Positions 1 to 4,771 of a DNA stretch of 4,771 bases are shown here, one piece after another; position 1 is the stretch's first letter, and each line of letters starts with the position of its first letter. Both the position numbers and the translations under genes were made by a program. This DNA comes from a virus (lineage: Duplodnaviria; Heunggongvirae; Uroviricota; Caudoviricetes): IMG/VR virus record IMGVR_UViG_2778261502_000006; one strand, 5' to 3'. The notes below the pieces were generated by a model. It saw nothing but the letters and a program-made list of their open reading frames with translations. It searched no databases and had not been told where the DNA came from.

Positions 1-315
1 TTATACACTTTGCTGTGGGATTTTCACGATTGAGGTACCATCAAATCGCCAGGTTAAATCAGCGTCAAAACCAGCAGGTAAAGCTTCAACTTCAGTCACT
101 GACATATCAACCGGGTACAGCATTGATACATCCTTTGCGCACGAACAAATAATACCGTCATCCCCATATACAATTTTCCAGGTATCTTCTCTGAATAACT
201 TTTGTGATTCGTACCAGTCATTGCCTTCATCATCACGAAGGTAAATGACTCCTGAAATGTATGTTTCTGGTGTGTAACGAGTCAGATTTTTTAACGTCAG
301 CATTTTGTTATCCAT
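1..315 (-). CDS. Tail-fibre assembly protein (Tfa; Mu U / P2 G family), N-terminal domain only, about 104 aa. Start ambiguous: ATG 313-315, TTG 316-318 or ATG 301-303.
   Basis: Minus-strand ORF ending TAA at 1-3. The segment DEGNDWYESQKLFREDTWKIVYGDDGIICSCAKDVSMLYPVDMSVTEVEALP matches the N-terminal signature I recall for Mu U / P2 G (EDGKNWYEE..PDT.K.VYD...I.....DVS..NP.....VEV). Its start overlaps the stop of an upstream tail-fibre-like frame (ATGGATAA), the usual stf-tfa coupling. The conserved C-terminal Tfa domain is absent. No clear SD. Confidence 0.6.
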   Translation of the reverse strand: MDNKMLTLKNLTRYTPETYISGVIYLRDDEGNDWYESQKLFREDTWKIVYGDDGIICSCAKDVSMLYPVDMSVTEVEALPAGFDADLTWRFDGTSIVKIPQQSV

Positions 316-544
316 CAATTGTTACCCAATTGCCATTCAGTCTCACCTGCATCGGCGCCACGCGTATTGCTGAAATTGTGATGTAGGTATCATTACTCAG
401 ATTGGTTAGCCCACACAGGAATGAACCACCAGGGGCGTCATAAGATTTTGACTCTCCACCACTACCACCTGGTGTTGCAATGGATGTGATAGCACCGCGC
501 CGGAACCCGCTAGGGTTACAGGTGGTTGTGGAACTGGTCGATAG
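308..544 (-). pseudogene. 3' remnant of a side tail-fibre (stf-like) gene: 78 sense codons with no start codon, ending TAA 308-310.
   Basis: Minus-strand frame is open from 544 to 311, bounded upstream by TGA (545-547). Translation is Gly/Ser/Thr-rich (...NPSGFRRGAITSIATPGGSGGESKSYDAPGGSF...NGNWVTIDG*) and ends 5 nt inside the tfa start, as tail-fibre genes do. The upstream body of the gene is missing. The tail-fibre call rests on position and composition only. Confidence 0.35.
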
Positions 545-632
545 TCATCCCTAAATCGGAAGCCATACCTAAGCGACCATGCTTGTGTGCCTTACACATC
601 AGGCGGATTGCTGTATTTATGCTGTCTACCAT
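516..632 (-). CDS. Small HTH-like protein, possibly a truncated cII-like regulator (38 aa from ATG 630-632; the longer 62-aa ORF from ATG 702-704 would overlap the cro 3' end).
   Basis: ATG at 630-632 is preceded by GAGGGA with an 8-nt spacer. It lies 31 bp downstream of the cro stop on the same strand, the lambda cII position. The product MVDSINTAIRLMCKAHKHGRLGMASDLGMTIDQFHNHL has a helix-turn-helix-like segment but is too short for a full cII, and its 3' end overlaps the tail-fibre remnant frame. Confidence 0.35.
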   Translation of the reverse strand: MVDSINTAIRLMCKAHKHGRLGMASDLGMTIDQFHNHL

Positions 633-663
633 GTTGATTTCCCTCTGGTAGTTAATAATCAAC

Positions 664-921
664 TTAAAGTTGACTATTGTTGTTAGCGGAAGGTATGCCG
701 TCATTTTTGTTCGGATAAATATCAGGTCGTAATTGATGGGGAGTTACTACCCATCCGCCCCATTGGCAGAGTTGAATAACTCTTTCAGAAGGTACTCGGT
801 TCTTTGCAATCCAGTTCGCAACAGATTGAACTGATTGGAATTCAAACCGCCTTGATACCTCTGAAATCGACCCGATCGCCTTCACAGCTTTAGCTGTTAC
901 ATTCTTGTGTTGAGATGACAT
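664..921 (-). CDS. cro: Cro-like DNA-binding repressor (Cro/YdaS-type HTH), 85 aa.
   Basis: ATG 919-921 is preceded by AGGAGA with a 5-nt spacer (reverse complement of 926-931); stop TAA 664-666. The segment FQSVQSVANWIAKNRVPSERVIQLCQWGGWVVTPHQLRPDIYP resembles the Cro/YdaS helix-turn-helix pattern (...S.W....RVP.ER...I...TGG.VT..ELRPD). It is divergent from the CI-like gene. The track ORF 664..978 adds an N-terminal extension with no RBS. Confidence 0.75.
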   Translation of the reverse strand: MSSQHKNVTAKAVKAIGSISEVSRRFEFQSVQSVANWIAKNRVPSERVIQLCQWGGWVVTPHQLRPDIYPNKNDGIPSANNNSQL

Positions 922-1026
922 GTGTTCTCCTATGACTAAGCCTGCATCAATACTACTTATGGTAGCAATTATTAGCAACTTAAAATAGAAATGACAACTA
1001 TGCCTTGTGCGCTTAATCTTCTACTT
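922..1026. promoter_or_regulatory. Divergent cro / cI promoter-operator region.
   Basis: Intergenic between divergent repressor genes. CTAC-N5-GTAG dyad CTACTTATGGTAG at 953-965 and related CTACTTATGGTGG at 1021-1033. A -10-like TAAAAT at 981-986 sits just upstream of ATG 991 on the plus strand. A -35-like TTGTCA lies on the minus strand (reverse complement of 992-997). Promoter assignments are by eye. Confidence 0.5.
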
Positions 1027-1710
1027 ATGGTGGAAAATGCTAAATACAAAGACTTTGCCGAAAGGCTAAACAGGTCTCTCCAAGAGCAATCTATTGGAGT
1101 TAAAGAATTGTCAGAGTTCAGTGGTGTCTCGTATGAGATGGCGCGGCGCTACACTCTTGGTACTGCAAAGCCGAGAGATGAGAAGATGATTCGAATTGCA
1201 GAAAGACTTGCCGTCTCACCGGCTTATCTTGATTATGGTGTGCCTGTTAATGGTGGCGACGCGCCAGCCAAAGGCACGGTCAGAATAGAGCAATTGGATG
1301 TTCATGCTTCAGCCGGTTCCGGATATATAAACCAACCATTCCCTACAATAGTGAGCTCAATAGAGATTCCAGAAGAGAGGATCTTCGAGTTGTTTGGTCG
1401 TAGAAGCCTTGATGGCATCGTCATGATAAATGTTGATGGCGATAGCATGATGCCCACGCTTTGCCCAAAGGACCTGCTTTTCATAGACAGCAAGGTTGAA
1501 CAATTCAGCGGCGACGGCGTTTATGTGTTCAATTTTGAAGACAGTACGTTCGTTAAACGTTTGCAGAAGGTAAAAGGGCGTCGACTGGCAGTTCTTTCAG
1601 ACAATGAACATTACCCGCCCTTCTTCATAGAGGAGCATGAAATGAATGAACTATACATATTCGGCAAGCTAATCAGATGCTTACCTCTAAAAATGATAGA
1701 GTTTGGCTAA
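991..1710 (+). CDS. cI: CI-like prophage repressor: N-terminal HTH plus C-terminal S24 (LexA-like) autopeptidase domain; 239 aa, or 227 aa if it starts at ATG 1027.
   Basis: Full-length ORF with stop TAA 1708-1710. HTH-like region (SIGVKELSEFSGVSYEMARRYTLG). S24 signature with nucleophile Ser in GDSM (VDGDSMMPT) and general-base Lys in FVKRL. Candidate Ala-Gly cleavage site in HASAGSG. No SD before ATG 991, so possibly leaderless like lambda cI. Confidence 0.9.
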   Translation: MTTMPCALNLLLMVENAKYKDFAERLNRSLQEQSIGVKELSEFSGVSYEMARRYTLGTAKPRDEKMIRIAERLAVSPAYLDYGVPVNGGDAPAKGTVRIEQLDVHASAGSGYINQPFPTIVSSIEIPEERIFELFGRRSLDGIVMINVDGDSMMPTLCPKDLLFIDSKVEQFSGDGVYVFNFEDSTFVKRLQKVKGRRLAVLSDNEHYPPFFIEEHEMNELYIFGKLIRCLPLKMIEFG

Positions 1711-1726
1711 TAATTAATTCATCAAG

Positions 1727-1750
1727 AAACCGGCGAAAGCCGGTTTTTTT
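1727..1750 (+). terminator. Rho-independent terminator downstream of cI.
   Basis: AAACCGGC-GAAA-GCCGGTTT stem with GNRA-type tetraloop followed by a run of 7 T. On the minus strand the same hairpin is followed by TTTCTT, so it may act in both directions. Confidence 0.75.
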
Positions 1751-1802
1751 ACGCCTCCAATTCCTCACCTCATAACACTACACTACTAAAAATTTCATTT
1801 TT

Positions 1803-1845: not shown

Positions 1846-1941
1846 CATTGCATCGAAAGCGAACAGGCAGGACGCCCACGAAGTAGCCGCCGGTGGCGTA
1901 TGAATAACCGGATGATTCGCACAATGTCTGATGGAGGGATT

Positions 1942-2166
1942 ATGGATAGTAAAGAACCAAAGATTTCAGCCGGCGGTATGTCGAACGATGAACTGCTTGC
2001 CTGGATGAAAAATAAAACTAAAGCGGTTGAGGAACTCAAATCCGCTTTAGCTCATAAGGAATTTCTGGAAGAGCAGCTTCAGATTAATGCCGCGGAGATT
2101 GAAAGACTTACTCCACAAGCATGTATGAATATTCTTTTGAGTGATCAGGATTCCATTCCCCATTGA
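1942..2166 (+). CDS. Hypothetical small protein, 74 aa, predicted helical / coiled-coil (track ORF begins at 1900).
   Basis: ATG 1942 is preceded by GGAGGG (1933-1938). Product MDSKEPKISAGGMSNDELLAWMKNKTKAVEELKSALAHKEFLEEQLQINAAEIERL... is charged and helical. Its last 59 nt overlap the 3' end of the convergent 175-aa gene, so one of the two may be non-coding there. Confidence 0.3.
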   Translation: MDSKEPKISAGGMSNDELLAWMKNKTKAVEELKSALAHKEFLEEQLQINAAEIERLTPQACMNILLSDQDSIPH

Positions 2167-2635
2167 TGAAGTCATCAAAGGAAGATTCCCAAACATTTGC
2201 ATGAATTTTATCTAAAAAGCCCCTATATGACTGTGGAAGTTTTTCCAAAACAAGGTGGTGCTGAACGGCAATGATGACATCTTCGAGATCCATCTTTCTT
2301 ATTTGCTCGCCAGGCCAGCTGTAAGTCTTATTTAGCAAGTGGATGATTGCAGATTTTCCCTTGAGAGGGCTGAAAATGGTTCCATGCTCCTGACGGTGGA
2401 TGGCGAGCATGACATCTAGCGTAGTAAGAAGGATGGCTCTGTTTTTTACTTTATGTAGCTCATCTTGAGAAACAGCTCCCATCTGAGGGATGTCTCTTAC
2501 TGAATGAATGGTCGCTATATGCGCCTTGAAGATTGCTGAATAGAAAGCGGTGCTCATTATTTTATCCTTCTTGGCTGTGTAGGAACTCCAAGATACCACC
2601 GAGCCTGATGTGGTGAAAAGACAGGCACACAACAT
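2108..2635 (-). CDS. Hypothetical accessory protein, 175 aa (149 aa if started at ATG 2555-2557); no family recognised.
   Basis: Minus-strand ORF, opposite to the cI-int strand. ATG 2633-2635 is preceded by AAGGAG with a 9-nt spacer; internal ATG 2555-2557 is preceded by AAGGA with a 7-nt spacer. No transmembrane segment or motif I recognise. It sits between the immunity and integration modules, where lambdoid phages carry exclusion genes. Confidence 0.55.
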   Translation of the reverse strand: MLCACLFTTSGSVVSWSSYTAKKDKIMSTAFYSAIFKAHIATIHSVRDIPQMGAVSQDELHKVKNRAILLTTLDVMLAIHRQEHGTIFSPLKGKSAIIHLLNKTYSWPGEQIRKMDLEDVIIAVQHHLVLEKLPQSYRGFLDKIHANVWESSFDDFINGEWNPDHSKEYSYMLVE

Positions 2636-2703: not shown

Positions 2704-2780
<77 letters not shown>

Positions 2781-3124: not shown

Positions 3125-3289
3125 ATGACGACCACACAGAACGTCACTGAGTTACAACCACGTATGACCAGAGAGCAACTGATCGATGCAGCTCGTAAAG
3201 CGGCCCCTCTTCTTCCGGTTGCTTACCGCGGGATCATGACAGAACTGGCTACGCCGACTGAAAGCCGATGTAGCATGGTGGAAATCTGA
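3125..3289 (+). CDS. Hypothetical small protein, 54 aa (track ORF 3014..3289 has an unsupported N-terminal extension).
   Basis: ATG 3125 is preceded by GGAG (3112-3115) with a 9-nt spacer. Product MTTTQNVTELQPRMTREQLIDAARKAAPLLPVAYRGIMTELATPTESRCSMVEI. Its 3' end overlaps a second open frame (from 3240). Confidence 0.4.
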   Translation: MTTTQNVTELQPRMTREQLIDAARKAAPLLPVAYRGIMTELATPTESRCSMVEI

Positions 3290-3311: not shown

Positions 3312-3500
3312 GTGTTCGAACTGGCAAACGAAATTGCTGAACTAAGAAGCATGGTGATTCGTGTACCAATGCCGGTAATGGTGCCAGTAGAGATACTTCA
3401 TCAGCTAAATGGGAAGGGATCGAAAGAATATCCATTATGTCGCAATTGCAACGATGGAACCCGTCACGGGTGTTCATCGTGTGCTTACAGAATGAAGTAA
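3312..3500 (+). CDS. Hypothetical small Cys4 (zinc-ribbon-like) protein, 62 aa from GTG 3312 (49 aa from ATG 3351).
   Basis: The frame is open from 3240. GTG 3312 is preceded by AAGG (3303-3306). C-terminus CRNCNDGTRHGCSSCAYR gives C-x2-C-x7-C-x2-C. It is followed by hairpin AACCGG-GTGCAG-CCGGTT (3499-3516), just upstream of the xis SD. Confidence 0.4.
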   Translation: MFELANEIAELRSMVIRVPMPVMVPVEILHQLNGKGSKEYPLCRNCNDGTRHGCSSCAYRMK

Positions 3501-3533: not shown

Positions 3534-3761
3534 ATGAGCGGACAAATCCAACGTTTTCTTACTCCTGATGACCTCTATCAATTAACTGGTTATCGTCGAC
3601 CTTCCCTACAGTGTAAGGCTCTGAGGGATAGTGGAGTTTTTTTTATCCCACGTAAGGACGGCAGACCTGGAACTACATGGGATCATGTATCAAACCCGGT
3701 TGGCCTTAAGTTGATAGTGAGCAATCCAGAGGAAGAAGAACCAAACTTTAAGGATATGTAA
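3534..3761 (+). CDS. xis: Excisionase (lambda Xis-like), 75 aa.
   Basis: ATG 3534 is preceded by GGAGA (3522-3526) with a 7-nt spacer. Stop TAA 3759-3761 overlaps the int ATG (TAATG), as in lambda xis-int. Similarity to lambda Xis is by remembered pattern (RRPRSL...PP.KDGR against RRPSLQ...IPRKDGRP). Confidence 0.7.
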   Translation: MSGQIQRFLTPDDLYQLTGYRRPSLQCKALRDSGVFFIPRKDGRPGTTWDHVSNPVGLKLIVSNPEEEEPNFKDM

Positions 3762-4771
3762 TGTCTAGAGCTCGCAAAAACCCTGATGATAACTGGATGC
3801 CTCCCCGCGTTCGCCGGGGAAAATCTGCTTATGAGTTTCGTACCACAGATGGTCGTACCATCAGGTTGTGCAATCCTGAGCTAACAAAATCGCAGGTATG
3901 GGCAGCTTACGAAAACTTCATAAACGATTTAAAGGTTGGTACGAACTTCAACGCACTTTGTGAAGAGTTCTTTAATTCCGGTGATTTCCACGAGTTAGCA
4001 ACTGAAACACGTAAAGACTACAGAAAATACGGTTCAAAGGTAAATGTTGTCTTCGGGAAAATGAAGCCGGATAACATCAAGCCAGAGCACATCAGAAAAT
4101 ACATGGATAAACGAGGTGTTAAGAGCAGAGTTCAGGCAAACCGCGAGAAAGCATTTATGTCCAGGGTGTTTCGGTGGGCATACGAACGAGGAAAGGTGAA
4201 GATGAATCCTTGCCAGGGCGTTAAGCAATTTAAAGAGCAGGCTCGAACCCGTTATATTAGCGATAGAGAATATGATGCACTTTATAGCGTAGCTTCTGTT
4301 CCAGTAAAAGTTGCAATGGAATTGGCATATCTATGTTGCGCCCGCCAGGGAGACATTCTTGACCTCAAAAAGAGTCAAATATTGAGCGAAGGAATTTTAA
4401 TTCAGCAGAGTAAAACCGCAGTTAGCCAGATCAAGGCCTGGACAAAACGTCTGGAGGATGCCGTTAATCTTGCTGACAGCATTCCTCTTAATAGCGGGAT
4501 GGTAAGTATTTTTGTCATCCACCAGCCATCAGGTCTGCGATACACACGCGATGCTTTTAATGCGCAATGGATGAAGACTAAAAAAATTGCTGCTGAAAAA
4601 TATCCAGACCTCGATTTCCAGTTCACTTTCCATGATCTAAAAGCCAAAGGAATTTCTGATCTTGAAGGTACGCTTAGTGAGAAGCAGGAAATTTCAGGTC
4701 ATAAAAACGCCTCGCAAACAGCGAGATATAACCGAAGAATTTCAGTTGTTCCGGTCGTCGGGGGGCAGTAA
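3761..4771 (+). CDS. int: Tyrosine recombinase / lambda-family phage integrase, 336 aa.
   Basis: Full ORF with stop TAA 4769-4771; AAGGA SD 6 nt upstream. Arm-binding-like basic N-terminus. Catalytic-domain blocks align with lambda Int: LAMELAYLCCARQGDIL (box I Arg), IQQSKTAV (Lys), FTFHDLKAKG (box II His), GHKNASQTARYNRR (His and nucleophile Tyr). Confidence 0.95.
   Translation: MSRARKNPDDNWMPPRVRRGKSAYEFRTTDGRTIRLCNPELTKSQVWAAYENFINDLKVGTNFNALCEEFFNSGDFHELATETRKDYRKYGSKVNVVFGKMKPDNIKPEHIRKYMDKRGVKSRVQANREKAFMSRVFRWAYERGKVKMNPCQGVKQFKEQARTRYISDREYDALYSVASVPVKVAMELAYLCCARQGDILDLKKSQILSEGILIQQSKTAVSQIKAWTKRLEDAVNLADSIPLNSGMVSIFVIHQPSGLRYTRDAFNAQWMKTKKIAAEKYPDLDFQFTFHDLKAKGISDLEGTLSEKQEISGHKNASQTARYNRRISVVPVVGGQ

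Follow-up and report, generated by a model that had tools for sequence, protein, structure and literature searches.

Cryptic lambdoid prophages of E. coli such as DLP12, Rac, Qin and e14 are integrated lambdoid genomes that have been cut by internal deletion, that are associated with tRNAs and flanked by att sites, and in which the functions for morphogenesis, lysis and replication were lost and the integrase, regulators and accessory genes were kept. A different kind of related phage is SfV of Shigella flexneri, a temperate myovirus with the genome organisation of lambda, which carries a Mu-like tail and a gtr serotype-conversion cassette at the prophage end. The loss of core viral genes and the retention of host-useful ones, by means of rapid large deletions, is how prophage decay is summarised from the work of Bobay, Touchon & Rocha (2014) where this is cited in PMC13626063, and in the same publication a 'rapid large-segment deletion' route of prophage domestication is distinguished as 'Mode 1' (PMC13626063). 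The leuZ gene, which is central to what follows, has been mentioned as an integrative-element site in STEC O145:H28 (PMC7067040).

The stretch of DNA analysed here in its whole length of 4,771 nucleotides (IMG/VR virus record IMGVR_UViG_2778261502_000006), which we will call the window, can be placed next to these systems. We hold with high confidence that its positions 517-518 are the join where a temperate prophage of lambda-like organisation, integrated at the leuZ gene of E. coli, lost a large internal segment in one event, which makes it an ordinary, though clear, case of prophage decay and no new kind of system. The K-12 cryptic prophages are old and more eroded, whereas this remnant keeps both att repeats and int/xis intact and has a breakpoint that is readable to the base; moreover, it is not located at the site of a K-12 cryptic prophage. 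With regard to the SfV-type phages, the common trait is the succession of a Mu gp44-48-type baseplate, a tail fibre, tfa and then an att-proximal glycosyltransferase cassette. The differences are that positions 1-516 of the window lack nucleotide similarity to any deposited phage searched that the small membrane protein of the cassette matches EamA and gave no GtrA match, that the 612-aa third gene matches no family, and that the element is integrated at leuZ. The locus offers a clean example, resolved to the base, of how prophage domestication can begin with one large deletion.

A first-pass annotation of the window had proposed a deletion scar around positions 500-560, and homology mapping now puts the breakpoint inside this interval, at 517-518, where the homologies to two parents meet. 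Alignment to intact relatives showed that the fibre homology extends through position 518 and that the cII-type (ymfL) homology starts at position 517. BLAST of the window against the tail-fibre/tfa loci (L002-L008) gave 99.8-100% identity over positions 1-518, and in megablast positions 517-1920 were 99.7% (99.6-99.7%) identical to the ymfL-cro-cI region of the E. coli Nissle 1917 prophage and others. When the whole window was compared by megablast with 5,426 complete E. coli genomes, a coverage of at least 80% was found in none of them, and the complete genomes listed as matching positions 1-620 (33 out of 33) align from base 517 onward. Positions 1-516 had no match in the 5,426 complete E. 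coli genomes, distant mode included, nor any nucleotide match in 50,697 phage records (blastn with a word size of 11, near and distant modes). Given that the fibre-side match reaches 518, that the ymfL-side match begins at 517 and that no E. coli genome in this set matches 1-516, the breakpoint is, as judged from these alignments, a real discontinuity, and a chance pattern of ORFs is ruled out.

A three-way alignment of the window with both parents gives a close-up view of this junction. The tail-fibre parent reads ...GCTAGGGTTA|TACACAAC..., the ymfL parent reads ...CTTCTGGTA|CAGGTGG... and the window reads ...GCTAGGGTTACAGGTGG..., with the 2 nt TA at 517-518 common to both parents. The search for microhomology, which the first-pass annotation had thought worth making at the breakpoint, yielded these 2 nt and nothing beyond chance level: overlaps of at least 2 nt are expected at about 16% of random junctions, so meaningful microhomology is absent from the compared sequences, and a homologous or microhomology-driven recombination is unsupported. 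The exact 26-nt junction pattern gave 0 matches in the GTDB species representatives, and no IS element was found at the join. A rearrangement of the fibre by an invertase of the Gin/Cin/Pin type was also considered and rejected, as neither a gix/cix-type core near position 517 nor an adjacent invertase gene exists; the crossover-site consensus used for the search was AAACCNNGGTTT, and invertase genes were looked for, without success, both in the window and in the contig that contains it (L009, see below).

The join is accompanied by a 13-nt inverted repeat (CCACTACCACCTG / CAGGTGGTTGTGG, complementary at 12 of 13 positions), with one arm in the fibre DNA (459-471) and the other in the ymfL DNA (519-531). 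The second arm directly abuts the join, and both arms pre-exist in the parents. Equally good repeats within 3 nt of the join appeared in 2 of 2,000 shuffles, a post hoc figure in which the length was chosen after seeing the repeat. It would be tempting to propose that pairing of the arms, or a protein bound to them, directed the illegitimate join, in a lineage whose relatives (L002/L004/L011 and L006) have also been truncated independently with the fibre-tfa-cargo end kept, and which would thus be predisposed to collapse into excisable mini-prophages with immunity and surface-modification genes, a scheme that we consider very unlikely. We know of no established mechanism using such an inverted-repeat geometry, and the repeat is reported here as a lead only.

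The DNA to the left of the join (306-518, minus strand) is the 3' remnant of a tail-fibre gene, comprising codons 313-381 of 381 together with the stop codon at 308-306, and is 99.8-100% identical to L002-L008. It keeps 69 of the 381 codons and has neither a start codon nor a ribosome-binding site. The full-length ORF is found in L005 (8863-10008, 381 codons, ending ...TVVYNPSGFRRGAITS...NWVTIDG), in the order Mu gp48-like baseplate gene, 381-aa ORF and tfa. It matches 13 PHROG families of the tail category, 12 of which are described as tail fibre proteins, whereas the fragment, searched by itself, is only weakly similar to phrog_12846 and phrog_4465, at their C-termini. From these matches and this gene order, the remnant is identified as the C-terminal tip of the tail-fibre ORF located between the baseplate genes and tfa. 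Pfam gave no match for either the fibre stub or Tfa, so that Tfa, the fibre stub and the ymfL stub were recognised by PHROGs alone, and tblastn with the 68-aa fibre stub found no match in phages.

The startless minus-strand frame is open from position 544 down to the TAA at 308-306 and overlaps the start of tfa at 315-313. The frame that had been described as tail-fibre-like over 311-544 does have such an origin, from base 518 downward. The stretch above it (519-544, minus strand) is ymfL-derived DNA that is open by chance in the fibre frame, where it translates as LSTSSTTTC, followed by NPSGF...; in the intact fibre the corresponding residues are ...GTWTVVY-NPSGF..., and LSTSSTTTC is unrelated to GTWTVVY. 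The 29-bp overlap between the stub ORF and the startless frame, already noticed in the first-pass annotation, is present at 516-544. It appears because the ymfL DNA at 519-544 is, by chance, free of stop codons when read in the frame of the fibre, and it is without biological meaning.

Next to the fibre remnant lies tfa (1-315, minus strand; ATG at 315-313, stop at 3-1), a tail-fibre assembly gene for a protein of 104 aa that matches phrog_136 (E=1.6e-33) and reaches up to 49% identity with the tail-fibre region of phage P1 in tblastn. An exact-protein look-up, the only means by which this left flank was identified, found the same Tfa in 12 contigs downstream of Mu-like baseplate genes, in the order gp44, 45, 46, 47/J and 48-type baseplate genes, an uncalled stretch of about 1.2 kb, and tfa. 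The protein of 104-105 aa covers only positions 1-105 of the 178-position phrog_136 profile. This short form is present in all the relatives found (L002-L008), with 356 nt of non-coding DNA before the cargo cassette, and it may represent either a naturally short chaperone or an older truncation.

The DNA to the right of the join begins with the stub of ymfL (516-632, minus strand; ATG at 632-630, stop at 518-516), the first 38 of 187 codons of a gene for a CII-like regulator, closed by a TAA that was made by the junction. Codon 39 is TAC (Tyr) in the parent, whose YmfL protein reads ...DQFHNHLY... around this position, and TAA in the window, where the third base comes from the fibre DNA. As the join turned codon 39 into a stop, the 38-aa ORF is a truncated gene. 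The first-pass annotation had described a cII-like ORF ending at 516-518, which was right as to the family and the end position; the ORF itself is a 38-codon stub of the 187-aa YmfL. In the Nissle prophage the YmfL CDS corresponds to L001 5553-6116 (564 nt, "YmfL family putative regulatory protein"), with window position 517 at L001 6001, and the genes after it are those for replication, a methylase, RusA, Ant and Q.

The intact Nissle YmfL (187 aa) matches phrog_101, "CII-like transcriptional activator", at positions 23-203 (E=2.8e-40), and also Pfam PF06892 Phage_CP76, "Phage regulatory protein CII". The window stub has no Pfam match and covers phrog_101 at positions 22-56 of 203 only (E=0.0025), a partial coverage by which the window copy is classed as a gene fragment and not as a functional member of the CII-like/YmfL family. 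Relatives of YmfL are encoded by 182 viral-contig stretches in IMG/VR, and among the 80 listed of these 182 many cover at least 161 of the 187 residues, on contigs whose length is about 40 kb. The 38-aa product, which the first-pass annotation had considered might prove to be a complete conserved small protein, corresponds to one of 187 aa in intact prophages. Both the 38-codon ORF and the startless frame should be annotated as pseudogene fragments and not as genes.

The window is 100% identical within NLUV01000013.1 of GCA_002233275.1 (L009), a draft contig of E. coli of 99,851 bp, and the exact 38-aa product was found in this one contig only, which is recorded for two samples. The host DNA that flanks the element on this contig (uvrC-pgsA-glyW-cysT-leuZ) shows 99.4-99.9% identity to E. 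coli. The element is inserted between leuZ and yecA, and the chromosomal synteny pgsA-leuZ ... yecA-tyrP is kept on both sides. The att sites, whose possible presence had been raised by the first-pass annotation, do exist beyond both ends of the window and are derived from leuZ. They consist of direct repeats of about 134 nt (83 nt at 92% plus 51 nt at 98%) at L009 5671-5802 and 15541-15674, which cover the 3' half of leuZ (tRNA-Leu) and a downstream hairpin and are 9,870 nt apart, as attL/attR.

This remnant carries int, xis, a pair of truncated early ORFs, tRNA-Arg and two small phage ORFs; in addition, it carries cI and cro, the stubs of ymfL and of the fibre gene, tfa, a convergent cassette of three genes, dinI and a umuD-like gene. 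The cargo cassette (L009 10988-14118, outside the window) encodes a glycosyltransferase of the GT2 type that PHROG matches as GtrB-like, an EamA-like membrane protein of 113 aa for which a GtrA match is absent, and a 612-aa polytopic membrane protein with no Pfam or PHROG family match; it may be a variant O-antigen modification (gtr-like) cassette. Essential lytic functions (replication, lysis, head and tail) are absent from the element and present in its intact relative L010. Bounded by att repeats, with truncated junction genes and with the lytic genes missing, the element has the sequence of a defective (cryptic) prophage made by internal deletion, and its missing genes would leave it unable to make phage particles. 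For annotation, where the finding is mainly of use, it should be recorded as a cryptic prophage of 9.9 kb located at leuZ.

The intact relative is a 45-kb prophage at leuZ of E. coli GDSC2BY4G (NZ_CP136025.1, 1903810-1949000; L010), with att repeats about 45.06 kb apart. It shares with the remnant the leuZ site, the integrase end (97.7%), the tRNA-Arg(TCT) region (94%), the cI-cro-ymfL region up to the breakpoint (99.6%) and dinI-humD (91%), in the order int-xis-early-tRNA-Arg-cI-cro-ymfL ... fibre, cargo, dinI, humD. From the ymfL breakpoint (L010 9955) to the end of the fibre gene (40,833) there are about 31 kb, where we find replication genes, RusA, Ant, Q-position genes, holins, lysin, terminase, portal, protease, capsid, tail tube, tape measure, TipJ and fibre. 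The first-pass annotation was thus correct in stating that replication, antitermination, lysis, head and tail are missing from the window, since all of them lie between the equivalent points of the GDSC2BY4G prophage. However, the tail of this prophage is of siphovirus type, its fibre/spike is another one, and an acyltransferase gene serves as cargo, where the remnant has the Mu-like fibre, tfa and the glycosyltransferase cassette; the siphovirus-type tail and acyltransferase cargo make it a mosaic cousin and not the parent. As for the Nissle 1917 prophage, it is 99.7% alike in the immunity region, and both this prophage and that of GDSC2BY4G keep the stretch of roughly 31 kb from ymfL to the fibre that is missing in the remnant.

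The L006 locus has the same int/xis/tRNA-Arg DNA (99.8-99.9%) joined to a Mu-like baseplate, a fibre tip and a tfa that are 100% identical to the window. Since the same integrase end is linked there to an identical fibre tip and tfa, a phage type with both ends exists, which supports the view that one parent type would have carried both of them. No intact genome with both the ymfL and the tail fibre of the window was found in E. coli genomes, GTDB species representatives or IMG/VR, and searches of IMG/VR with the full fibre and with the full YmfL gave no contig common to both result lists. The fibre-tfa-cargo-dinI block is also found, at 99.2% identity, at another chromosomal site next to different host genes (L002/L003), which makes it conceivable that a module exchange may have preceded the deletion.

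The intact fibre loci have a Mu-like baseplate, so that a myovirus with the genome organisation of lambda is the probable parent, rather than a siphovirus of the lambda type. The lambdoid origin put forward in the first-pass annotation consequently stands for the organisation of the genome but not for a lambda-like tail module, which is Mu-like in those intact loci. Other joins are seen among the relatives. In L002 (~5013), L004 and L011 (~6141), early genes are joined about 30 nt inside a gp44-like baseplate gene, with no baseplate-J gene called, and in L006 (~4642-5080) int-xis-tRNA-Arg is joined upstream of a diverged baseplate module, with the immunity region absent. Relatives with the fibre-tfa-cargo end thus show independent truncations, and the lineage seems to be mostly found as remnants.

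The existence of the same block elsewhere also brings in another history, in which the join would result from recombination between two prophages or from a module insertion, with the fibre-tfa-cargo-dinI block coming from a Mu-tailed prophage elsewhere in the chromosome. The 99.2% identical copy of this block beside different host genes in L002/L003 speaks for it, as does the siphovirus tail and acyltransferase of the intact leuZ relative L010 in place of the block, and no single parent was found. Against this, a crossover in direct orientation between two prophages would delete the chromosome between them, whereas synteny is intact (pgsA-leuZ ... yecA-tyrP) and both att repeats are leuZ-derived. 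Moreover, in L006 this integrase end stands together with a Mu-like baseplate and with a fibre tip identical to that of the window, and a 2-nt overlap located mid-gene in both genes is unlike a normal module exchange. On balance, we regard such a recombination or insertion as quite unlikely.

A chimeric contig in a short-read draft would be a more trivial source of the join. NLUV01000013.1 does come from a draft assembly (99,851 bp), prophage regions are prone to misassembly and the join is absent from the 5,426 complete E. coli genomes; however, the 2 nt that the parents share fall short of the k-mer-length overlap that a graph assembler requires, the contig is recorded for 2 samples, and the element has matching att repeats at its two ends in a chromosome whose synteny is otherwise kept, so that an assembly artefact is extremely unlikely. 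Finally, an element of about 10 kb with an integrase, an excisionase, a repressor pair and att repeats, and with no lysis or capsid genes, recalls an evolved phage satellite (PICI-like) whose short ORFs would be native genes. This reading is hardly credible and was rejected: both junction genes are truncated copies, 99.7-100% identical to full-length phage genes, the fibre stub has no start codon, and neither a primase/replication module nor packaging-redirection genes are present among the genes of the window or of L009.

Coming back to the single internal deletion, both flanks would derive from one parent prophage, and the deleted DNA would amount to about 25-31 kb. The deletion would run from ymfL codon 39, in the PR operon just downstream of cro, to fibre codon 312, and would have removed the replication, antitermination, lysis, head, tail and baseplate genes. 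As the ends have only 2 nt (TA) in common, the proposed joining is illegitimate and homology-independent, a mechanism that would exclude homologous or site-specific recombination. Three products would result from it: the 38-codon ymfL stub, the startless 3' stub of the fibre and the 9.87-kb cryptic prophage with both att repeats. The event appears to be recent in view of its flanks, which are 99.7-100% identical to intact relatives.

As to its consequences, the PR-like promoter (997-968), if derepressed, would drive transcription of cro, the ymfL and fibre stubs and tfa. With the lysis and replication genes gone, SOS induction would no longer kill or lyse the host cell. The cI/cro switch, int/xis and the cargo genes are apparently intact, as are both att repeats, and the remnant may keep homoimmune (superinfection) protection, modify the O antigen and excise. 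Such a retention of genes agrees with the known bias of prophage decay towards losing the core viral genes and keeping those of use to the host; the first-pass annotation had read it as a sign of selection, which a single instance cannot show.

A detailed view of the immunity region shows an intact gene at the position of cro (667-924, minus strand), which encodes a repressor with an HTH of the YdaS family (PF15943, E=4.9e-9; phrog_35) and is annotated as YdaS family in L001 and as a transcriptional regulator in L010. Upstream of it, a PR-like sigma-70 promoter (968-997, minus strand; TTGTCA-18-AATAAT, 10/12), a consensus match only, is directed toward cro, the ymfL stub, the fibre remnant and tfa, and is flanked between cro and cI by operator-like 16-nt direct repeats at 953-968 and 1021-1036 (CTACTTATGGTAGCAA and CTACTTATGGTGGAAA). 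The cI-type repressor gene (991-1710, plus strand) is intact and encodes HTH and S24 autopeptidase domains (PF00717, PF01381; phrog_4, E=2.1e-43). The second operator-like repeat extends into the 5' end of the long cI ORF, so that translation probably begins at the ATG at 1027, which would give a protein of 227 aa; the counterpart in GDSC2BY4G (L010) is annotated as a 227-aa LexA family regulator. A consensus scan of window positions 1-1800 found no terminator-like site on either strand. A stem-loop with a T run (AACCGGC-GAAA-GCCGGTT, 1727-1750) lies just 3' of cI, is typical of an intrinsic terminator and was not reported by that scan.

Beyond the immunity region, positions 1921-2596 are a mosaic segment absent from the Nissle and GDSC2BY4G prophages, with two overlapping convergent ORFs at 1900-2166 (plus strand, phrog_1744) and 2108-2635 (minus strand, phrog_5286), the latter having a counterpart in L010 annotated as an ECs1072 family protein. 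A tRNA-Arg(TCT) gene follows (2704-2780, plus strand), inside the prophage early region and not at the att site. It is kept at the same position in the GDSC2BY4G prophage (L010 7597-7673) and is 93% identical to tRNA-Arg genes of the Salmonella phages SPN1S and SPN9TCW. The window ends with a DUF4224 excisionase-like gene (3534-3761, plus strand; PF13986; phrog_1266 excisionase) and a tyrosine integrase gene (3761-4771, plus strand), which forms the left end of the remnant beside leuZ and lies 127 nt from tRNA-Leu in L009.

A second deletion scar is found in the early-left region at about 3251/3252 (3245-3260), where about 2.8 kb are missing in comparison with L006 and about 4.6 kb in comparison with L010; the genes absent relative to L010 include DUF551, DUF4014, HNH, ParB-like and others. 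The ORFs flanking this scar are partial, that at 3125-3289 corresponding to PHROG positions 33-76 of 151 and that at 3312-3500 to positions 31-87 of 89, and the join itself sits in an imperfect short repeat (CTA-CGCCGACTGA vs CTAACCGACTTGA).
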